Assembly: GCA_964447765.1 (NCBI GenBank)
Contig: CAYUTO010000002.1
Span: 38,955 to 102,954, forward strand
Direction: 5' to 3'
DNA from: an uncultured Gammaproteobacteria bacterium
Lineage (GTDB): Bacteria > Patescibacteriota > Patescibacteriia > Magasanikbacterales > UBA922
Length of the DNA stretch: 64,000 nt
The notes below the pieces were generated by a model. That model had not been told where the DNA came from, did not search any database, and saw only the letters and a program-made list of their open reading frames with translations. How positions within the stretch are numbered: the stretch's first letter is position 1; each line of letters opens with the position of its first letter. The translations under genes and the position numbers were made by a program. Below are positions 7,155 through 47,000 of the stretch, piece after piece.

Positions 7155-10100
7155 ATGTTTTTTCTCTCCAAAAGAACAAAGAAGCATTCAGTCATCGCTA
7201 TTATTGCGGTGGTTGTAGTAGTGAATGTGCTTGGTTTTAATTTACTCCGTCCAACTCCGGTACGTGCGTTTGTCGACGTAAATCAGGGACTCAGAAACGT
7301 CACTGATAATATTGGTGATTCGCTGTTGGCTGCTGGACTGGGAGCTCTCGTTAATGGAGCATCGTATTTCATGCGAAAAATAGCGTATGATACGGCAAAA
7401 TATATTGCTTCAGGTGGAAAAGGGCAGGGAGCGCTTGCATTCCAGGATGGCTTTGGTAGTTATCTGGGAAATGTTGCAGCAGATAGTGCGTTTGATGCGA
7501 TTGATGAATTAGGAAAACCATTCGGTTTGAATATTTGTCAACCTCCCGATATACGATTACAAATTGGGCTTCAGGTCAGTATTTCAAATATTTTTGCTCA
7601 GGATGGTCCGCAGCCAAGTTGTACATACAATCAGTTTAAGGAAAAATGGGACAATGCACGTGATAGTTTGGTGGGTGATCAAAACTTACTTGAAAACTTC
7701 AATGTATCACTCAAAACTTCTCAAGGAAGTTTAGGAACAGCACTTTCAATTTTGGGAAAAGTAGACAGTATCGTTGCTAAGAGTGAGTTGGGGGCACAGT
7801 TGGAGCGACTTGAGGGTGGAGGATTTAAATCGATTACAGGACTTATTTCAGGTGAAATCAAAACTCCTGCGCAAATAACTCGTGAAGAAGCAACTGGACA
7901 ATTGACCGCAACAGCTCAAACCAAATCGAGTGCCGAACAAATTGCTGGACTCTACGGAGCAGATGCTCTTTCCATTTTCCCCATGGCTTTGTCAGTATTT
8001 GCAAATACTCTCGCAAGTACACTACTTCAAAATGTGCTTGAGAAAGGATTATTACCAACCAAAGGTGATCCTTCATCAGTTGCTGATTTTTATGCTTCCA
8101 CAGTGAACAGAAATCGTCAGATTGCAGAAACTGCATTCTCATACCTTATTGCAGGAATTCCACAAAGACCTTTGACTGCATATGACGTGGTCACTGAGTA
8201 TAGTACCTGTGGTAGTAATCCTGGGCTTAATAATTGCGTCATGGATTCAGGTCTTGCTCAGGCTCTTGATCGTGCTCGACTGGGAACACCGCTTACGATT
8301 GGAGAAGCGATGTCATCGCAAAATAATTTACTTCATGATGATTGGTTGCTGATAGCAGATCATCTCGAGGGTATTGACCCAAGTGTAAGTAAAACAAATC
8401 TTACTAATACTAATTTAGAGTATTGTCACAGTTCTGCATACTGTATTTCTAATGTTGAAAAATTGAGAAAAGCTCGTATTTTACCTTTGGGATTTGAAAT
8501 CGCCGTAATGAAATCTCCTCCAGATAATCCATGGAAATTAGGTGATGTGGTGAGAGGATTTAATACTTGTGATCCGAGTGGTAAGCCGAGCGATGCGTAT
8601 CCATACTGCAAATTGATTGATCCTAATTGGATACTCAAAGCTCCTGAAGCTCGCTGTGAAGCTCGGGTGTCTGGTCCTGAACTGTTGACCGAATCTACTC
8701 CAACGAGACGCGAGGAATGTGTAGATTTTTCAACATGCCTTGAAACAGATGAGAATGGTCAGTGTAAAGGTTTTGGGTATTGCACCAAAGAAGAAAATAT
8801 TTGGAACATGCCTGGTCAAGCCTGTGCCCCACAGTTTAATACGTGTAAAACATATGTTTCTGCTAGTGATGGGAAAATTGCCTCGTATCTTTCGCGTACT
8901 CTCGATGTAGAGTCATGTAGTGCTGATTCAATCGGATGTCGTGCCTATAGTCTGGATAAGGACGGAGATGCGTGGGTAACGTCAGCCGAAGCTGATCCTG
9001 CTACTGCATTTTCGGGACGCACACAAGCAATTCATTTCACGAATATTGCTCAGTGCCCATCGTCATCAGAAGGATGTTCGCTCTTCATGGATCCAACAAT
9101 TAGTGACGCCTCAAGTGATGAAGCCCGTGTATTCCTAAAAAAAGCCCCTGATTATTTACAATGCTATGACAGTGATCTTACAACTTCAGATGTAGTTGAA
9201 TGGCCACAAACTCAGGCTGAAATCGTGAAGCTTGATACACAAAAAGCTGCAGCATGTTCGGCATTTGCTGGAGCGTGTACAGGAGAAGAAGTAGGATGTG
9301 AAGTGTATGCTCCTAAAAATGGGGGAGCATCAGTTACTGGTATTATTGGGGGGAATAGCTGTCCTACTCAATGTGTAGGATACGAAACATTCAAACAAGA
9401 AGCTACTACATTTGAATCTGAGAAATTCCCCTTACATTTTATCGCGTCAAATGCCAGAACTTGTACTAGTTTGCAGGTAGGGTGTGATGAGTTTACTAAT
9501 ATTGGTGTGGCGAGTGAGGGTGGAGAAGCGCTCGAATATTATACTGCACTCAAGCGTTGTGAGCGTCCAAGTGGTGATAATAGTGGAGTATTTTATTCAT
9601 GGGAAGGGTCGGAAAGTCAGGGATACCAATTGAGACGAAACATTTTACTACCAATTACATCATCTGACCGCGACTACATTAGTAGTCATGGATTGAATTA
9701 CAAGTCGGGTGATTCACTTGAATCAGTATTCCCTGTGGGATCACCTGCATACGTAGAAGATCTCAAATCAGCCATGCAATCAAATTATGATCAATGTAAT
9801 CAGGAATCATATAATTTGTTATTGAATAATGTGTTGAATGATTCAAGAGTTGCTGATAATGATTGTCGAGCGCTCTATAATTCAAATGGACAAATTTTTT
9901 ACCGAGTATTCAGAAATACCGTAACCGTATCAAATTCTTGCACACCTCTTCGAAAGACCAATTCAGAATTGATGGTAGACGAAAATATTACTGCGGGAAA
10001 TGGGGGACAAACTCTTTGCGAAGCAAAAGGTGGAGTATGGGGTGCGGGAGAATGTAAACGTTGTGCGGCCGGTGGAACATACGAAGTAAATACTGAAGGA

Positions 10101-16370: not shown

Positions 16371-16889
16371 TCACCGGTAGAACGTGGTGAGCAGCGAAGA
16401 GCCTGGCAGGTCAGCTCGGACATCCTTTCGAATGAGGGCCTCTCCTTCGATGAAGAGATAGCTTGTATATTCGTGGATGCCTGAAGCCCATTGACTCGAC
16501 AGCGGTAGCGTCTTGCCGAAGAAGCGTTGTGTGCCGCAGCCGTCGCAGGCGAAGATGAGTTCGCACTGGTCGCCAGCAGCAGAGACCTGGACCGTGATCT
16601 CGAGTCGATCACCGTCGATCAGGTTGTTGTCGCTCTCGCACCACCAGATTCCCCGTAGGTCGAAGAGATCTTCGCAGAGGTCCTCGGCAGTGAGTGGTGG
16701 TGTGAACGTGTCATTTGTGGCGGTATCTGGGACCGCCGTGTAGGTGTCGGGCTGGTGGGGATCATCTCCCTTACCAGTGTCCGACGTATCGGTGGTAGTG
16801 ATTGGACCAGGTTCGACACCTGGATCCGAAGAGTCGCAAGCCGCCATCGCGAGGGCGGCAGCGATGACGGCAATCATCCTGCAGAGCAT
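16371..16889 (-). CDS. Lipoprotein (GC-rich island A); signal peptide with lipobox ALAMAAC
   Basis: MLCRMIAVIAAALAMAACDSS..., T/D/P-rich linker, 4 Cys. GAGGAG SD sits 8 nt upstream of the ATG. Local GC is far above the flanks. Confidence 0.6.
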   Translation of the reverse strand: MLCRMIAVIAAALAMAACDSSDPGVEPGPITTTDTSDTGKGDDPHQPDTYTAVPDTATNDTFTPPLTAEDLCEDLFDLRGIWWCESDNNLIDGDRLEITVQVSAAGDQCELIFACDGCGTQRFFGKTLPLSSQWASGIHEYTSYLFIEGEALIRKDVRADLPGSSLLTTFYR

Positions 16890-26377: not shown

Positions 26378-26455
26378 CCGCATACAAATGCGGCTGCGTG
26401 TGTTGGTAGGGAAAGGTCGAGCAGCGCGTTGTGTTGCGCTGTACTCGACCTTTCC
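26378..26455 (-). terminator. Tandem hairpins: an 18-bp GC-rich stem, then a ccgcat/atgcgg stem with a U-run. Terminator of island-B gene 1.
   Basis: ggaaaggtcgagcagcgc...gcgctgtactcgacctttcc (26409-26455), and ccgcatacaaatgcgg preceded on the plus strand by aaaaa. Confidence 0.65.
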
Positions 26456-26462
26456 TCGGTGT

Positions 26463-27068
26463 TCATCCTGCCTTCCGCGCATCTTGCGCAGGACTGAAGA
26501 TGAACTTTTCTTTTCCCCCGCGACCATGATAGGTGATCGAACCACTGGTGGTCTTCGCATTCTTACCTGTGCGATGCCAGGTGATGGTGGTACCAGGAGA
26601 CATTACGAGAAGAACTTCGTAGATTACTCCGAGGTAGGCGAGTCGGAGAGAATCTTTTCGCCACTTCTCTCCCGACGCAATAGTGATCACCTTGTTGTTC
26701 GTATCGAGCCAGGCTTTGCCTTGGTCGCCAGACTCAATATGGAGGAGGACGAGAACTTTGTCCTCGATCATCGACTTCAGCCACGGTTTGACGATGAGAG
26801 GTTTTCCATTCCCTCCAATCACCACCTCGGCTTCGGCGAGATAGCGGCGCTCGCCCCTCTGTTCCATGCCGTCTTGGTTGGCACGTGTGAAGGGTTCGCG
26901 GATTACCAGCTGTCGTTCAGTACTTAAACTGAGATGAACAAATGTGCCATGTCTTCGAGGTCCTACACCAATGGGGATTGCGAGTCCATCACTGTGTGTG
27001 AAGAGTTGGATCTTTGGAGTATGTTTGTTCGCTCCATCTCGTTGGACTTTGATATCACTGAAATACAT
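26463..27068 (-). CDS. Hypothetical protein (GC-rich island B, gene 1)
   Basis: ORF track 26463..27101. Internal ATG at 27068 has SD GGAGGgaacaATG. No recognisable motif. TTGACT-17-TATCCT promoter candidate upstream. Confidence 0.5.
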   Translation of the reverse strand: MYFSDIKVQRDGANKHTPKIQLFTHSDGLAIPIGVGPRRHGTFVHLSLSTERQLVIREPFTRANQDGMEQRGERRYLAEAEVVIGGNGKPLIVKPWLKSMIEDKVLVLLHIESGDQGKAWLDTNNKVITIASGEKWRKDSLRLAYLGVIYEVLLVMSPGTTITWHRTGKNAKTTSGSITYHGRGGKEKFIFSPAQDARKAG

Positions 27069-27164
27069 TGTTCCCTCCAAGGAAAATGGGTTTGGCTGCA
27101 CATAGGATACTATAAATAAGCTAAAAAGTCAAGGTTAAAGGGACGAAAAGTCTTGTGTATAAAC

Positions 27165-27313: not shown

Positions 27314-27814
27314 TTACGACCGGAGGAGGGTGAGGATGTTAGCGAGTCGGCTGCTGAAGCTTGTCGGCGGAGGGGCCAAGCGCTTCATGATGATCTCGAG
27401 AGCGAGAGTGAGCTTCGCCTTTGCTACTCGACCTTCGCCTTCGAAGTCGCCGAGGTAGAAGTGCAGGATGTCTGCTTGGTAAGGTCCGGTTATTTCATCG
27501 GCACTCCCTTCGTCTACTCGAGTGATCTTGATATAGAACACCCAGAGTCCATCGACTGAGGAGTCGTCGGAGGCATCGCCGGCTATGTTTGCCAGAGGAC
27601 CCCAGACAAATTTTTCTTCACGCTCCGTGAAGTTGCCCATTCCATTCGCGTTGCGCAGGTAGACCTGCACTTCACCACCTTCGCAGGTAGCGAGTCCGTT
27701 CAGAGGCTTCAATGCCTCGTGGAGTGAGCCGAGCCACTTTGCCAGAGCTGAGTCAGGACCATCCTGGCTTTCCAGAATGCCGGATTCTGGAAGAGGCACC
27801 GTGATACTTTTCAT
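27314..27814 (-). CDS. Hypothetical protein (GC-rich island B, gene 2)
   Basis: The ORF track extends it to 28084, but that N-terminus overlaps tRNA-Leu. First ATG beyond the tRNA is at 27814. TTGACA-17-TAATTT promoter candidate at ~27860-27890. Confidence 0.45.
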   Translation of the reverse strand: MKSITVPLPESGILESQDGPDSALAKWLGSLHEALKPLNGLATCEGGEVQVYLRNANGMGNFTEREEKFVWGPLANIAGDASDDSSVDGLWVFYIKITRVDEGSADEITGPYQADILHFYLGDFEGEGRVAKAKLTLALEIIMKRLAPPPTSFSSRLANILTLLRS

Positions 27815-27902
27815 TGTCTGTCCATTGTAGAAAGTGCATACCGAGATTCGGCATGGTCGAGAACGACCTATGAAATTATCAGCTTCTCTTCTTTTTGTCA
27901 AG

Positions 27903-27931
27903 AATAGGGGATAAAAAAGAAGTCTTATTAC
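27903..27931 (-). terminator. Terminator of tRNA-Leu
   Basis: agaagtctt-attac-aagacttct, with an A-run on the plus strand (U-run on minus). Confidence 0.65.
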
Positions 27932-27936
27932 AAGAC

Positions 27937-28020
27937 TTCTCATTAGTGCCCAGAGAGAGAATCGAACTCTCACGATATTGCTATCACGGGATTTTGAGTC
28001 CCGCGTGTCTACCAATTCCA
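27937..28020 (-). tRNA. tRNA-Leu (anticodon CAA), type II with a long variable arm
   Basis: Reverse complement GCCCAGATGGTGGAATTGGTAGACACGCGGGACTCAAAATCCCGTGATAGCAATATCGTGAGAGTTCGATTCTCTCTCTGGGCA; anticodon loop CTCAAAA. Confidence 0.8.
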
Positions 28021-28116
28021 CCATCTGGGCATTTTTCACACCATTGGTGAAGATGAGTATAGCCTTTACTCGTACACTTGTCAACGATATGCTATACTGT
28101 ATGAAGCAAAATACCT

Positions 28117-32464: not shown

Positions 32465-32530
32465 ATCCGTCTCCTTGGTTGTTTGGGTGACCCCACAGTA
32501 TAGCATATTTGAGTGATTTTGTCAATACAA

Positions 32531-41623: not shown

Positions 41624-41695
41624 GCACTCGTCGTTTAATGGATAGGACACTAGCTTGCGGAGCTGGTAATCGTGGTTCGATTCCACGCGAGTGCA
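41624..41695 (+). tRNA. tRNA-Arg, anticodon read as GCG (unusual; bacteria normally encode ACG)
   Basis: GCACTCGTCGTTTAATGGATAGGACACTAGCTTGCGGAGCTGGTAATCGTGGTTCGATTCCACGCGAGTGCA. Anticodon stem CTAGC/GCTGG, loop TTGCGGA. D-arm GTTTAATGGATA is shared with the other two Arg tRNAs in the window. Confidence 0.65.
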
Positions 41696-41699
41696 CACT

Positions 41700-41728
41700 T
41701 ACAAAAGAACCTTAAAAGGTTCTTTTGT
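41700..41728 (+). terminator. Perfect 10-bp hairpin after tRNA-Arg(GCG)
   Basis: caaaagaacc-ttaaaa-ggttcttttg. Confidence 0.55.
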
Positions 41729-41754
41729 ATTGGCAATTGTATAGAATATTATTT

Positions 41755-41773
41755 TGTGATATTACTTATCACA
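41755..41773 (+). promoter_or_regulatory. Palindromic operator-like site TGTGATATTACTTATCACA upstream of ORF 41803
   Basis: TGTGA-N9-TCACA perfect dyad, 30 nt upstream of the SD AGGAGGGG. Confidence 0.4.
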
Positions 41774-41802
41774 CACGACTGCATCCCTGAATAGGAGGGG
41801 AT

Positions 41803-42270
41803 ATGGAATCTGAAAAGTCTAAAATACCTCAATGGGCAAAGGGGTTTATTCTAAAAAAAGGAGGTACAGGGATTGTAGAGTATCGGAACAAGCAATACGA
41901 GTATGTGGTCCTGAAAAGGGGGATGATACCAGGTCTTTTGAATTTCGTCGGATTTGTCGAGAGCAGCAATTTTCTGTATATCTCTGAAGATGTTCCAGTC
42001 AAATACCGAAAATATGTGCTCAGGCACGAGCTTCGAAAGTGTCTAGGATACGGCGGAAGTGGTAAAGAAAAGTGCCGTAGGTCGCTTGAAGCAGAGTTGA
42101 AAGAAGTTCCTGACGCACTCAAAAGAAGGTATATCTGGTGGCGATTCAGATCTTTCAATAATCTGTTTTGGTATTACAGTGAAGGACCAGGAAGAGTGGC
42201 GTATAACGAGAAATGTCTATATGAAATTCTCGGGAGCCTGCTTTTTCTTGAAAGTGCTCTAAATGCATAG
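41803..42270 (+). CDS. Hypothetical protein encoded between two tRNA-Arg genes
   Basis: 155 aa. Strong SD (aggaggggatATG). No recognisable catalytic motif (HELRK has no second His). Followed by a GC-rich hairpin terminator gcgcgtatgg...ccatgcgcgc. Confidence 0.5.
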   Translation: MESEKSKIPQWAKGFILKKGGTGIVEYRNKQYEYVVLKRGMIPGLLNFVGFVESSNFLYISEDVPVKYRKYVLRHELRKCLGYGGSGKEKCRRSLEAELKEVPDALKRRYIWWRFRSFNNLFWYYSEGPGRVAYNEKCLYEILGSLLFLESALNA

Positions 42271-42334
42271 TGGGCGCGTATGGGGTGGAGAACCATGCGC
42301 GCTTCGTCTGTTTATGGTAGTATTAGGCGATTAG

Positions 42335-42406
42335 GTCCTCGTAGGTTAATGGATAGACCTCTGGCCTCCGAAGCCGGAAATTCAGGTTCGACTCCTGACG
42401 GGGACA
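42335..42406 (+). tRNA. tRNA-Arg (anticodon CCG)
   Basis: GTCCTCGTAGGTTAATGGATAGACCTCTGGCCTCCGAAGCCGGAAATTCAGGTTCGACTCCTGACGGGGACA; anticodon loop CTCCGAA. Confidence 0.8.
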
Positions 42407-42445
42407 CAACGTAAAAATCCTTGCGGATTCACGTTGTGATACGCA

Positions 42446-43666: not shown

Positions 43667-45778
43667 TTGTGTATGAGTACACTTCGTCTTACAACTCCGG
43701 TTGCCGAGCTCCATCGCGTGGGAAAAAATCTAGAAAATAAACTAGCCAATCTTCGGATACAAAAAGTACAGGATGTATTGTTTCATTTTCCTTTTCGATA
43801 TGAAGATTATCGTTCAGTTGTTGCAATCGCGAATGTAATGCCAGGAGTTGACCTTACGATTAAAGGTACCATTGAACTTATTGCTAATAAGCGCAGCCCT
43901 CGTAAACGCACGATGATTACTGAAGCAGTGGTTCGAGATGAGACTGATGTGATTCGAGTAATTTGGTTTGGTCAGCCATTTATCGGGAAAATATTGAAAG
44001 TGGGTGATGAAGTGTTTTTATCTGGTTCGATAAAAGAAGATATGTTTGGAGTGCACATGGCAAGTCCAGCGTATGAACGTGTGCGTGAAGACAAGCAGGC
44101 AACGCATACCGCACGCATTGTTCCTATGTATCCACTTACTGCAGGTGTGACACAAAAACAAATGCGATTTCTTGTGGAGCAAGTACTCCCGCTCGCTGAG
44201 CAAATCAAAGAATGGATTCCTGAAAGCATTCTTAAAAATAACGAGCTCATTCCATTGTCTCGTGCAATACAAAAAATTCATTTTCCAGAAAATCATGAAG
44301 AACGAACCCTCGCGGAACAAAGGCTAAAATTTGGAGAATTATTTGTCTTACAACTGCGAGCAGAGTTGATTCGCCAGGCAAATGCGAGACAAATTGCACC
44401 AAATATTGGGTTTAAAGAAAAAGAAATCCGTGAGTTTGTACAGGAACTTCCTTTTGAATTGACGGTGGATCAGAAAAAGTCTGCCTGGGAGATTTTTCAA
44501 GATATTGACCGTGGGACCCCCATGAACCGTCTTCTTCAGGGAGACGTGGGATCGGGAAAAACAATTGTTGCTGGTTTATGTGCGTATTTGAGTTTCCTTA
44601 ATGGGTATCAGACCGTTATTATGGCCCCGACAGAAATTTTGGCAACTCAGCATTTCGAAACATTTGGTAAAGTGTTTGGTGACAAGCTGAATTTTTGTCT
44701 ACTGACTGGTTCAGAAATAAGGAATTGGAAAGATGGTATTGAAGGGGAATCGAAAGCAGCACGGAAGTTGTACTTAAAAAAAGAAATTTTTGAAGGTAGG
44801 GTGAATGTTATTATTGGAACGCATGCACTTCTGACGGAAGATACACAGTTTCATAAATTAGGCCTCGTGGTAATCGACGAGCAACATCGATTTGGGGTAG
44901 AGCAGCGAAAAACAATTCGTGATAAATCGGGAATGGAAGGAATGTATCCACATTTTTTATCCATGACTGCAACGCCAATTCCACGCTCGTACGCACTGAC
45001 CTTGTATGGGGATCTTGATGTGTCGTATATCAAAACAAAACCAGCAGGGAGAAAAGATATTATTACGAGACTAGTCGAGCCAAGTAAAAGGGATCGCGCA
45101 TATGGATTTATCAGAGAACAGGTACACAAAGGGCGACAAGTGTTTGTCGTGTGTCCTTTGATTCAGGAAAAAACCAAAGAAGGTGAAAGTATGGGGGTAG
45201 TATCAGAAAAGAAAACCGTGTTGTCTGAATACGAAAAGTTATCAACAAAAATTTTTCCTGATTTGCGAGTCGACTATCTTCATGGAAAAATGAAATCAAA
45301 AGAAAAAGAAGGAATCATGAAAAAGTTCGCAGAGGGCGTTACTGATATTCTAGTTTCAACTTCTGTAATTGAAGTTGGGGTAAATATTCCAAACGCGTCG
45401 ATCATGATGATTGAAGGTGCTGAGCGATTTGGGTTGGCGCAGCTGCACCAATTCCGTGGAAGGGTGGGGCGAGCCGAACATCAGTCGTATTGTATTTTGT
45501 TTACCGAGATTGAGAGTGTAACATCAAAAGGGCGATTAGAGTACTTCGCTAAAACACTTGATGGATTTGCGCTTGCTGAATACGACCTTGAAACAAGAGG
45601 TCCAGGAGAAGTATATGGTACTGCGCAGAGCGGAATGGAAGAACTCCGTCTTGCGACTATGCGTGATCAAAGTATCATTAAAGCTGCGAGAGAATCAGCG
45701 CGAGGTATGGATTTTGAAAAGTTCCCCGAGCTGAAAGATCGGGTGCAAGAGTGGGAAGCACGGGTGCATATGGAATGA
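43667..45778 (+). CDS. recG: ATP-dependent DNA helicase RecG
   Basis: Wedge/OB N-terminus. Helicase motifs GDVGSGKT and DEQHRFGV. 703 aa. Confidence 0.9.
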   Translation: MCMSTLRLTTPVAELHRVGKNLENKLANLRIQKVQDVLFHFPFRYEDYRSVVAIANVMPGVDLTIKGTIELIANKRSPRKRTMITEAVVRDETDVIRVIWFGQPFIGKILKVGDEVFLSGSIKEDMFGVHMASPAYERVREDKQATHTARIVPMYPLTAGVTQKQMRFLVEQVLPLAEQIKEWIPESILKNNELIPLSRAIQKIHFPENHEERTLAEQRLKFGELFVLQLRAELIRQANARQIAPNIGFKEKEIREFVQELPFELTVDQKKSAWEIFQDIDRGTPMNRLLQGDVGSGKTIVAGLCAYLSFLNGYQTVIMAPTEILATQHFETFGKVFGDKLNFCLLTGSEIRNWKDGIEGESKAARKLYLKKEIFEGRVNVIIGTHALLTEDTQFHKLGLVVIDEQHRFGVEQRKTIRDKSGMEGMYPHFLSMTATPIPRSYALTLYGDLDVSYIKTKPAGRKDIITRLVEPSKRDRAYGFIREQVHKGRQVFVVCPLIQEKTKEGESMGVVSEKKTVLSEYEKLSTKIFPDLRVDYLHGKMKSKEKEGIMKKFAEGVTDILVSTSVIEVGVNIPNASIMMIEGAERFGLAQLHQFRGRVGRAEHQSYCILFTEIESVTSKGRLEYFAKTLDGFALAEYDLETRGPGEVYGTAQSGMEELRLATMRDQSIIKAARESARGMDFEKFPELKDRVQEWEARVHME

Positions 45779-45815
45779 TGGTGTGTAGATACGTCAAAAG
45801 AGTGGAAAATCGTCC

Positions 45816-45854
45816 CCAGTTTGCATTGACAAACTGGGTTTTTTTGTGTATACT
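45816..45854 (+). promoter_or_regulatory. recG rho-independent terminator whose loop contains the -35 box of a consensus promoter TTGACA-17-TATACT driving the island-D gene
   Basis: ccagtttg-cattga-caaactgg then gttttttt. TTGACA at ~45826 and TATACT at ~45849. Confidence 0.65.
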
Positions 45855-45919
45855 CCGCCAGTCTGTTCCACAGGGGCAGGCACCGTCACGCACGAAAGTG
45901 CATTATCAGGAGTCTCACT

Positions 45920-46405
45920 TTGAAAGAATCGGTTCTCAATCGGATCAACAAGATGTCCTATGAGGAGGGTGCCAACCTCCTCACGAACCTCCGCCTGAAC
46001 GCGATCCCTCCGTACCGTCTCCACACCCACCCCGTCGAGTTCACGATCCACACCTTCGGCGTCGACTGCGAGGCCAGGGTCAAGTCGGACACGATGGATA
46101 CGCGTCGTGCCATGAGTGATCTCGGCATGCCGCGGGTCCAGGAGATCGCCAACACGATCTACTTGCACCCGACGCTCGGGGAGGATGCTCTGAACGCGAT
46201 GCTCGACGGCAAACGTGTCGTGATCAACGTCCAGCGTCACCCGAAGACGGAGACGAAGCCCGCGATGCAGGCGGTTCCGATGGCGCCGGTCGAGGTCATC
46301 GCCTCGGTGCTCGACGACGTGCCGGAGGACAAGAGCAAGAAGAAGGTCGAGAACAAGTCTCGGCGCAAGCAGCAGCCCGCGGTCTCCGCGGAATTGCTCC
46401 ACTAG
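45920..46405 (+). CDS. Hypothetical protein (GC-rich island D, ~65% GC). TTG start with AGGAG SD.
   Basis: ORF track 161 aa. AGGAG sits 7 nt upstream of TTG. Opposite-strand ORF 45794..46492 is Arg-rich, typical of an antisense artefact in GC-rich DNA. Confidence 0.55.
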   Translation: MKESVLNRINKMSYEEGANLLTNLRLNAIPPYRLHTHPVEFTIHTFGVDCEARVKSDTMDTRRAMSDLGMPRVQEIANTIYLHPTLGEDALNAMLDGKRVVINVQRHPKTETKPAMQAVPMAPVEVIASVLDDVPEDKSKKKVENKSRRKQQPAVSAELLH

Positions 46406-46558
46406 GTCAAATGATCTAGTAAGAGAAGCAGGCGGTCGCCCATGGCGACTGTCCTGCGTCTCGAATACAAAATCCACACTCGAATCACGCAATAAGTCTC
46501 ATCTATATGGGAACTATCGCGGGAGGGCGAGTGTGGATTTTTGTTTTGCAGTGTATTA

Positions 46559-46591
46559 TTCCTCTCCTAAGAGGAGAGGTTAGGTGAGGTC
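46559..46591 (+). repeat. Left terminal inverted repeat: palindromic core cctctcctaagaggagagg plus aggtgaggtc
   Basis: Pairs with 47049-47080 (gacctcacct plus the same palindromic core). Confidence 0.6.
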
Positions 46592-46628: not shown

Positions 46629-47000
46629 TTAAGTAGTTAACTGAGAAGAAATATTGCAGGCATTTTTTATTTTCTCTATTACACTTTCTCTTTCAAATAA
46701 TACTTTATCATTTTTAAATCGTATTATTTTGAATCCTTTATTTTTTAGAAAATTTTCTCGTCGGCGATCATATTCTTTCTGTTCGTCATGAACCGGTCCA
46801 TCGAGTTCGATTACCAATCTAAATTCATGACAATAAAAATCAACAATAAATGATCCAATACTGTATTGTCTTCTAAATCTTATTCCTATTTTTCCACCAT
46901 ACAATTCTCGCCAGAGTATTTGCTCAGCCTTGGTCGGATTTTTTCGAAGTAATTTTCTCTTATTAATTAAAGAACGTTTGTTTGAATAAACATACGGCAT
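46629..47000 (-). CDS. DUF559 endonuclease-domain protein (Vsr/MutH-like restriction endonuclease fold)
   Basis: LWRELYGGKIGIRFRRQYSIGSFIVDFYCHEFRLVIELDGPVHDEQ...ENFLKNKGFKIIRFKNDKVL matches DUF559. AAGGAGGG SD. Confidence 0.7.
   Translation of the reverse strand: MPYVYSNKRSLINKRKLLRKNPTKAEQILWRELYGGKIGIRFRRQYSIGSFIVDFYCHEFRLVIELDGPVHDEQKEYDRRRENFLKNKGFKIIRFKNDKVLFERESVIEKIKNACNISSQLTT

Follow-up and report, generated by a model that had tools for sequence, protein, structure and literature searches.

How does a small GC-rich gene come to be joined so precisely to the terminator of a housekeeping gene in a genome of much lower GC content, and what keeps it GC-rich? The stretch in question is a 64-kb piece of DNA (the window; all coordinates are positions within it), which its RecG protein places in Candidatus Magasanikbacteria, within the Candidate Phyla Radiation (CPR/Patescibacteria). 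Immediately downstream of recG, at about 45950–46450, lies an island of 60–70% GC in a window of 41.7% GC, and in the island an open reading frame (ORF) of 161 codons that starts with TTG. An earlier sequence-only reading had taken this for a foreign gene spliced onto the native recG terminator. We compared the locus with fetched related loci (L-numbers) and database protein matches (P-numbers), among them five species-level relatives with 82–88% RecG identity (L001–L005). The explanation that we consider probable is that the island belongs to a conserved, self-contained, monocistronic expression unit of CPR bacteria of the Candidatus Magasanikbacteria type, the GC-rich alleles of which are exchangeable. 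The parts of the unit and the gene preceding it are:

43667–45778, forward strand: recG, the upstream housekeeping gene, a 703-residue ORF with 82–88% identity to RecG of Candidatus Magasanikbacteria metagenome-assembled genomes (MAGs).
45815–45845, forward strand: intrinsic terminator of recG, found by terminator scan; stem CCCAGTTTG/CAAACTGGG, loop CATTGA, then T7.
45826–45854, forward strand: predicted sigma-70-type promoter; -35 box TTGACA, a 17-nt spacer ending in T7GTG, -10 box TATACT; 11 of 12 positions match the consensus.
45856–46420, forward strand: exchangeable cassette (leader, ORF and about 15 nt), without nucleotide homology to close relatives.
45861–45881, forward strand: hairpin at the 5' end of the predicted transcript, GUCUGUUCC-ACA-GGGGCAGGC, from folding.
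45883–45888, forward strand: CCGTCA motif between the leader hairpins, mostly unpaired in predicted folds.
45890–45901, forward strand: second, small leader hairpin, GCAC-GAAA-GUGC, with a GNRA-type loop, from folding.
45908–45912, forward strand: Shine-Dalgarno (SD) sequence AGGAG, 7 nt before the start codon, read from the sequence.
45920–46405, forward strand: type-A cassette gene, 161 residues, TTG start; coding by GC periodicity, homologues, the ratio of non-synonymous to synonymous divergence (dN/dS) and predicted fold.
46423–46462, forward strand: hairpin H0 of the 3' untranslated region (UTR); fixed base GAGA-A-GC.../...GC-G-UCUC, variable compensating top.
46473–46548, forward strand: composite intrinsic terminator; helix P1 (UCCACACUCG/CGAGUGUGGA) around an AAUCA / GGAGGG internal loop, helices P2 and P3, then U5GU4.

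The recG terminator begins 37 nt past the recG stop codon (45778) and has the stem-loop and U-tract of an intrinsic terminator; its hairpin, CCCAGTTTG-CATTGA-CAAACTGGG (45815–45838), has 9 bp, five of them G-C pairs, and a loop of 6 nt. The promoter is set into this structure. Its -35 box (45826–45831) straddles the hairpin, with TTGA in the loop and CA in the 3' arm, so that the sequence-only reading, which had put the whole box in the loop, was right for the first four letters only. The hairpin with its T7, the TATACT that follows TTGACA after exactly 17 nt (45849–45854), and the AGGAG, 7 nt and TTG that open the 161-residue ORF were all found where that reading had seen them. The 3' arm of the terminator and its T-run double as the promoter spacer. 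Exact matches to TTGACA-N17-TATACT occur three times in the window, compared with 0.01 expected in a shuffled window, and one of them (28084–28056, reverse strand) stands directly upstream of a tRNA-Leu(CAA) gene (28030–27946), a position which indicates that this is the native strong-promoter form of the lineage.

The two hexamers are identical in all 14 listed instances of the unit, and the spacer, which ends in a T-run followed by GTN, measures 17 nt in 13 instances, L003 alone having 18 nt. All nine close instances in the recG context have a stable hairpin (-9 to -18 kcal/mol) with the promoter spacer as its 3' arm, L005 with a compensatory double change in the stem (CAATTTG/CAAATTG). Even the distant L013, which has an unrelated stem (AGACGG/CCGTCT), carries TTGACA in the loop again, then a T-run and TATACT. 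The copies of the unit that lie beside rpsT (see below) have the same promoter and T-run, and folding gave no stable terminator hairpin there; since the T-rich spacer is present without the hairpin, it must be intrinsic to the promoter. It would then be recG that gained a 5' arm complementary to the promoter spacer, with spacer and T-run subsequently serving as the recG terminator. On this comparison, the order of events appears to be the reverse of a gene being spliced onto a native terminator, as the 5' arm was added to an existing promoter.

Two further observations concern the region upstream of the promoter. In L002 (about 8115–8225) and L004 (about 8115–8210), roughly 100 nt of AT-rich imperfect repeats (AAAACTCAAAG / AAAGTTCAAAAC-like units) lie between the recG stop codon and the terminator-promoter hairpin; this insert is absent from the window. 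In L093 (7736–9853), recG is called in pieces of 107, 103, 81 and 405 residues, which reflect either frameshift errors or a decaying recG, and the downstream unit is intact.

What follows the promoter differs from genome to genome. All five close relatives have kept the hairpin, TTGACA, the T-run and TATACT after recG, and in each of the five comparisons blastn homology with the window stops at exactly 45855, one base past TATACT, to resume at 46421–46474. The junction is thus as precise as had been claimed from the sequence. The sequence-only reading had also suggested comparing the recG–radA interval in relatives, and these are not empty: each of the five has a GC-rich island of its own, 250–600 bp long, with a forward-strand ORF and a GC content at third codon positions (GC3) of 0.70–0.82, and a GC-rich cassette stands behind the same promoter in L087, L093 and L094 as well. 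Nine further contigs of the Candidatus Magasanikbacteria type share the promoter with the window, and a GC-rich ORF comes after it in each. We distinguish type A (window), B (L001, L002), C (L004, L005) and D (L003), plus singletons. Between types, tblastn detected no similarity and hhalign none that was significant.

The distribution of these types conflicts with the recG phylogeny. The nearest neighbours by recG, at 89% identity, are L093 and L003, which carry types B and D. L004 (type C) is closest to L002 (type B; 84%), while L004 and L005, both with type C, are only 75% identical, L005 being the most divergent genome. The window itself, with type A, is closest in recG to L093 (type B), and the other type-A genes belong to genomes that are much more remote. 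An allelic-replacement locus is recognised by unrelated alleles in one slot, abrupt breakpoints and a conflict with the phylogeny of the flanks, all of which are found here, and the pattern is what either allelic replacement by recombination in the conserved arms or a long-maintained polymorphism would produce. L004 has, in addition, a second small GC-rich ORF (8819–9028; 69 residues, GC3 0.70) with its own terminator, in tandem after the first unit, which shows that cassettes can be stacked.

Homologues of the cassette proteins are scarce. Pfam, PHROGs, PADLOC and NCBIfam gave no match for any of them (although not every library was run on every protein), a word-index protein search with the single window sequence returned nothing, and an exact-protein look-up found the 161-residue protein not to be on record. 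An exhaustive HMMER scan of 1.84 billion representative proteins identified four true type-A homologues, to which a profile search added two (P0002–P0005, P0008 and P0009), 35–51% identical over residues 1–110. The ORF therefore lacks an obvious homologue, as had been said of it, as far as ordinary searches go, but the exhaustive scan gives it a small family. The top HMMER match, P0001 (E = 1.8e-44), was rejected as the translation of a tandem repeat, and P0006 and P0007 were rejected as repeat or low-complexity noise.

The genomic context was readable for five of the six type-A homologues (P0003 was left out). The gene for P0002 (L087) comes straight after recG and has the same hairpin-promoter in front of it. 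P0004 and P0005 (L081–L085) are encoded beside or near rpsT, as three contigs show, in genomes of 32–34% GC, with rmuC on the other side of the unit in L081 and L085. P0008 lies on a short contig (L088) with the same upstream sequence as L081, and P0009 on short contigs (L090–L092) on which no neighbouring gene is visible. Promoter, leader type and 3' module are the same in every type-A contig that reaches far enough. Family B (P0010–P0013) was found in the recG slot only; its promoter and 3' module are the common ones, and its leader is peculiar to B. The unit thus occurs in two contexts, downstream of recG and beside or near rpsT, and is a transcription unit conserved in these bacteria. Among the representative proteins, all true type-A homologues with readable context come from this type of unit, and none was found in a high-GC organism or a virus. 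Phage, plasmid and viral collections yielded no match (including blastn against phage and plasmid collections), a pattern scan with the 3' core had no viral matches, and we found no description of the unit in the literature searched.

These results bear directly on the idea of a single recent acquisition from a high-GC donor, spliced by chance onto a recG terminator that happened to provide a promoter. The third-position composition of the gene is indeed like that of a high-GC actinobacterial gene, the breakpoint at 45855 is sharp, and the genes of the host have a GC3 of about 0.34. However, a GC-rich cassette follows this promoter in all close relatives, the promoter accompanies the unit into a different genomic context, no family member turned up outside the unit, and the high GC3 has been kept in hosts of 32–42% GC at near-saturated synonymous divergence. 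The composition is deviant, as in a foreign island, but the locus is not absent from relatives and donor homologues were not found. We consider a recent import extremely unlikely. The view of a foreign gene on a native terminator is not supported, as the promoter belongs to the unit, the slots of the relatives are filled and the family was found in low-GC CPR genomes only.

On the far side of the unit, two features adjoin it:

46561–46579, no strand assigned: hairpin CCUCUCCU-AAG-AGGAGAGG, between the unit and the next gene; its membership in the unit is uncertain.
46629–47000, reverse strand: DUF559 (Vsr-like endonuclease fold) gene, a convergent neighbour (Pfam PF04480, E = 3e-34).

The hairpin (CU-rich/GA-rich, then UUAGGUGAGGUC) sits just past the terminator of the unit; it is conserved in L001–L003, has an analogue in L090 and is absent in L081 and L085. 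The DUF559 gene, which has weak PADLOC matches to DpdF and a methyl-directed restriction enzyme, adjoins the unit in the window and L093, and probably also in L002, where the downstream sequence matches the DUF559 region of the window. In L081 and L085, rmuC stands in its place, and the DUF559 gene is probably not part of the unit.

A nuclease-like neighbour is one of several features that might be expected of the remnant of a mobile element, whether a phage moron, an integron-like cassette or a miniature transposable element. The unit has its own promoter and terminator, a deviant composition and variable gene content within constant ends, and a phage-type integrase lies about 4 kb away in L085. 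Nevertheless, we judge such an origin very unlikely. The unit is flanked by housekeeping genes, recG and radA or, in L081 and L085, rpsT and rmuC, and other phage genes are lacking there, no cassette protein had a PHROG match below E = 0.1 or a match to a viral contig, and the 3' element is conserved in sequence, unlike the attC sites of integrons. It is not bordered by direct or inverted repeats, and the 64-kb window contains neither a second copy nor a repeat of any part of the cassette. No integrase was called in the flanks of L081–L083 or L093, the neighbouring ORFs of the window having been scanned only in part. The tRNA genes nearest to the island are more than 3 kb away.

The island also contains a long frame on the opposite strand:

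45794–46492, reverse strand: antisense ORF of 232 codons, not a gene; shadow of the high-GC3 sense frame.

The GC contents at the three codon positions are 0.60/0.36/0.87 for the forward ORF of 161 codons and 0.78/0.41/0.55 for the reverse frame. The forward ORF is the single extreme outlier in GC3, its 0.87 comparing with 0.345 on average and 0.55 at most in ORFs of 200 residues or more; its third positions are A in 0.02, C in 0.43, G in 0.43–0.44 and T in 0.10–0.11 of cases. Each of the cassette ORFs has a GC3 of 0.63–0.87 with three-base periodicity. For the reverse frame, scans of protein-family libraries gave no match, homologues exist for the forward frame only, and the frame is reduced to 66 residues in the homologous loci L081–L083. 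That it is antisense noise, as the sequence-only reading had held, is borne out by all three observations, and neither the homologues nor the conservation that would have spoken for that strand appeared. The TTG start is supported by the alignment of residues 1–12 with the N-termini of homologues that start with ATG, and SD-like motifs are present at the equivalent place in other leaders.

An abrupt change in composition and a long antisense ORF could also mean that the island is an artefact, either a chimera of the assembly or a misread reverse-strand gene. We give this virtually no credence: independent assemblies from different studies, more than ten MAGs or contigs, show this architecture between stretches of host sequence, and the antisense frame has neither coding periodicity nor homologues.

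In orthologous pairs of cassette genes, dN/dS is about 0.2–0.45, at synonymous divergences (dS) of 0.7–1.6. The genes are thus under purifying selection and yet evolve fast; the cassette proteins of L001 and L002 are 58% identical, while the RecG proteins of both loci are 87–88% identical to that of the window. The cassette proteins have 64–161 residues and are hydrophilic and basic, with isoelectric points of 7.9–10.5 (8.7 for type A of the window), and no signal peptide or membrane segment is evident in their sequences. With an alignment of six sequences, AlphaFold modelled residues 1–110 of type A with a predicted local distance difference test score (pLDDT) mostly of 85–95, as an alpha/beta fold with helices at 5–10, 14–26, 31–36, 59–82 and 87–95 and strands at 41–53 and 98–106, followed by a C-terminal tail that is predicted to be disordered, is rich in lysine and ends in LLH. 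The single-sequence model was unusable (pLDDT 38). Foldseek found no neighbour of the type-A model in PDB or BFVD (best E about 0.7, template modelling score <0.2), and a marginal match to the N-terminal region of Lon in a profile search of PDB sequences (E = 0.02) was treated as chance.

Families A and B share an ending of two hydrophobic residues and His, Asn or Tyr (LLH, LLN, FLN, YLH, QLN, HFH, HLY; 46391–46402 in the window), and the DNA around the stop codon is similar in both (YTCCACTRR). This could be a C-terminal tag or a constraint at the RNA level. Small size, basic charge, rapid evolution and allelic turnover suggest that the proteins may bind nucleic acid or a fast-changing partner.

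The RNA that carries these proteins would start at about 45861, judging from the position of the -10 box. The hairpin at its 5' end (GUCU.../...AGRC) is part of the minimum-energy fold in eight of 11 leaders, some 0–4 nt from the presumed 5' end, and its arms differ between instances with complementarity kept. CCGTCA is invariant in the leader alignment of the window with L001–L005 and also present in L081, L085 and L088; L090 has the variant CCATCA, and the motif is absent in L087. A likeness of the leader's CCGTCAC to 16S rRNA near position 1400 may exist, but is given no weight. Analogues of the second leader hairpin occur in L004 (CGC-GAAA-GCG) and L005, the loop often being of the GNRA type. 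The leader is conserved within an ORF family. Hairpin lengths vary so much that MAFFT/RNAalifold gave no consensus of the 5' leaders, and single-sequence folds were used. Neither inspection by eye nor the minimum-energy fold revealed complementarity of the transcript's 5' end with its 3' end.

The 3' module crosses the boundaries between cassette types, and it was found at the end of the unit wherever a contig reaches there, in eight cases, two contigs breaking off inside it. H0, of about 40 nt and -22 to -31 kcal/mol, is present in 11 of 11 instances with differing tops that stay paired, and is identical between the window and L001 despite their unrelated cassettes. In the composite terminator, P2 is CGCAAU/AUCGCG and P3 is UCUCAU/AUGGGA, and the internal loop has AAUCA on its 5' side and an SD-like GGAGG on its 3' side. 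Across nine distinct sequences, 96% of the cells of this structure are paired, compared with 29–55% when the partners are slid; four pairs have changed on both sides, and none of 500 shuffles reaches the observed covariation score. A covariance model (R1) matches in full length at the end of the unit in the window and ten fetched loci, in part in L094, and more weakly at the ends of the islands downstream of recG in the more distant L016 and L013. Rfam 15, at gathering as well as permissive thresholds, recognised only tRNAs in the window and 12 related loci (best matches in the island E > 2). An identity of the conserved ends as transfer-messenger RNA, RNase P RNA, 6S RNA or a tRNA-like structure was rejected on the negative results of ARAGORN and Rfam and on the length of the ORFs and their SD sequences.

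Could the locus, then, be primarily a gene for a structured non-coding or dual-function RNA, its ORFs incidental or secondary? A GC-rich island in an AT-rich genome is usually a structured RNA, conservation is stronger in the UTR modules than in the coding sequence, the whole predicted transcript folds with z = -5.4, much of the island lies outside the best ORF in the distant L007, L010 and L011, and the codons used by the cassettes are the rarest of the host. Against this stand the strong three-base GC periodicity of every cassette, an SD sequence and start codon at a conserved distance, a dN/dS below 0.5 with protein motifs conserved across near-saturated dS, and the confident protein fold; moreover, the variable region has no RNA sequence or structure conserved between types and no Rfam match. 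An RNA gene of this kind is, in our estimate, distinctly improbable.

There remains the question of what keeps the cassettes GC-rich. GC3 is 0.87 in the window gene compared with 0.345 in its host, and 0.65 compared with 0.24 in L081; type-A members have diverged at synonymous sites to near saturation, with dS of about 0.8–1.6, yet their GC3 stands 0.4–0.5 above that of hosts of 32–42% GC. An offset kept at such divergence must be maintained in place and is not the trace of a recent import. Nor does it reflect a codon preference of the host for highly expressed genes, since the adjacent rpsT has a GC3 of 0.14–0.24 with A at 47–56% of third positions, where the cassettes have 2–9% A. The enrichment extends to the untranslated parts of the variable segment, most clearly in the distant relatives. 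All ten coding sequences tested fold better than their own synonymous-codon permutations (z -0.3 to -4.3), and cassette coding sequences are about 60% more stable per nucleotide than recG mRNA. The best inference that we can draw is selection for a compact, nuclease-resistant and long-lived mRNA, as this would fit the 5' hairpin, the SD-like purine motifs, the two 3' hairpins and the folding signal alike.

The main rival at this step retains the same anatomy and exchange and regards GC-richness as a side effect that GC-biased gene conversion produces where recombination is frequent, at a hot spot. Allele turnover and the conflict between flanks and cassettes imply frequent recombination, the enrichment affects coding third positions and non-coding variable parts, and the signal from the synonymous permutations is only modest. 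On the other hand, the arms that would recombine (the promoter, and the 3' module with 41–46% GC) are not themselves GC-enriched, although they are constrained, and the ten coding sequences all fold better than their permuted versions. The offset in GC3 of +0.4 to +0.5 is also far above that credited to biased gene conversion in bacteria, which counts against this process here. We see gene conversion as a possible explanation, though a doubtful one.

A more far-reaching version of selection would be a dedicated CPR expression site with fixed docking arms and a pool of cassettes, in which GC-richness is functionally required. The transcript might then be a structured RNA of dual function and very long life, or the message or its product might be tuned to the host cell of the organism, possibly one of high GC. 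We think this unlikely.

Several points weigh against selection on the RNA of an exchangeable unit. The permutation z-scores are modest (mean about -1.8), and three of four control pieces of recG were slightly negative, too. GC-biased gene conversion at a recombining site could yield the same offset without any selection on RNA. The covariation in the composite terminator comes from only nine distinct sequences with few independent events, and P3 never varies. When types A and B are compared by hhalign, equivalent positions are aligned (pairwise E = 0.018, probability 2.5%), and some of the cassette types may form a single family that has diverged extremely, instead of being unrelated. In the collections scanned, the unit is rare, as the 3'-core pattern had a single match in the JGI metagenome collection, on a contig already among the loci. 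Finally, promoter activity, transcription start, mRNA stability and the mechanism of recombination have all been deduced from sequence.

With these reservations, we favour the following picture of the exchangeable expression unit. A native consensus promoter would start the transcript, which would consist, in this order, of the 5'-terminal hairpin, CCGTCA, a small hairpin, the SD sequence, the message for a small, basic, soluble protein and a 3' UTR with two hairpins, the second being an elaborate intrinsic terminator that would end the transcript at about 46548. Leader and coding part would together form the exchangeable allele, types A–D and others replacing each other, most likely via homologous recombination in the conserved arms formed by promoter and 3' UTR. 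Selection on the RNA would hold the whole variable transcript far above the GC content of the host.

The window offers some further observations on codon usage and on other GC-rich genes. Its tRNA genes at 2522–2721 and 41624–42407 include tRNA-Arg with the anticodons TCG, GCG and CCG and tRNA-Lys with CTT, so that the genome keeps decoders for the G- and C-ending codons used heavily by the cassette. On the reverse strand at 32525–31697, an exact TTGACA-N17-TATACT precedes three consecutive small hydrophobic ORFs of 88, 83 and 91 residues, the third with a Lys-rich and a His-rich end; their GC3 is 0.61–0.64 compared with 0.345, and a raised GC3 may be general among the small genes of this genome that have strong promoters. 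A second GC-rich island (16371–16889, reverse strand; 58% GC, 0.59/0.50/0.66 at the three codon positions) encodes a protein of 172 residues that begins with MLCRMIAVIAAALAMAAC, resembling a lipoprotein signal with a lipobox. Upstream of this gene are a promoter-like site, TTGACA-17-TCTAAT, and a long leader to about 17033; the protein has no family match (best NCBIfam E = 0.023) and no Rfam match was obtained. The segments 26388–27101 and 27314–28084 are moderately GC-rich (52–56%), with long ORFs on both strands.

CPR bacteria combine a large uncultured diversity with tiny genomes, so that conserved features outside housekeeping are informative. The unit is a small, naturally occurring gene slot in which the regulatory ends stay constant and the content is replaceable, and the locus illustrates how a terminator can be built onto an existing promoter. 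It also poses an evolutionary puzzle, a coding sequence kept for long periods at 40–50 points above host GC3 against both mutational bias and codon preference. An answer would tell selection on mRNA structure and biased gene conversion apart in a real case, and would assign a function to several orphan protein families, one of them with a confident fold for which no structural neighbour was found. For genetics in these organisms, the promoter, the leader and the 3' UTR could be used as expression parts.

How does the unit compare with known systems? In phage morons, promoter, gene and terminator form an independent unit of deviant composition. The locus resembles them in being an autonomous transcription unit that brings promoter and terminator with it and departs in composition from its neighbours; it differs in that it is not in a prophage, keeps its chromosomal position from species to species and joins constant regulatory ends to replaceable content. 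From integron cassettes it is set apart by a 3' element that is conserved across cassette types, unlike attC (no dedicated search for attC or IntI was made), and by having one cassette per locus, or two in L004. As to targets of diversity-generating retroelements, there is no repeat of the cassette in the 64-kb window, although no search aimed at a reverse transcriptase was made.

Analogues by allelic replacement are the staphylococcal agr and the pneumococcal com/blp specificity loci. With these, and with capsule loci, the unit shares unrelated alleles in one slot, sharp breakpoints and allele types that are incongruent with the flanks. Bacterial capsule (K/cps) loci are hypervariable loci subject to allelic replacement and flanked by conserved genes (PMC13043062). 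In contrast to all of these, the slot described here holds a single small gene (about 0.25–0.5 kb), its homology arms are a promoter and a 3' UTR and not neighbouring genes, and all of its alleles share an extreme offset in composition from the host.

The RNA ends recall the mRNA stabilisers of Gram-positive bacteria, which include 5' stem-loops and STAB-SD sequences (ermC, aprE, cryIIIA) and, at the 3' end, the terminator that acts as a positive retroregulator of Bacillus thuringiensis cry. As in those cases, a hairpin is located at the very 5' end of the predicted transcript, large stable hairpins are found at the 3' end, and purine-rich SD-like motifs occur in the leader, after the stop codon and in the internal loop of the terminator. 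By this analogy, the 5' and 3' elements of the unit are putative stabilisers that would work in a similar way. There is no sequence similarity to the Gram-positive elements, and here the body of the mRNA is GC-enriched as well, unlike in the known cases.

Overlapping arrangements of terminators and promoters are known from compact genomes, and the present locus is like these in that one stretch of DNA ends the upstream gene and starts the next. Unlike in the other overlaps, the respective roles can be read from comparison, the spacer being intrinsic to the promoter and only the 5' arm having been added near recG.

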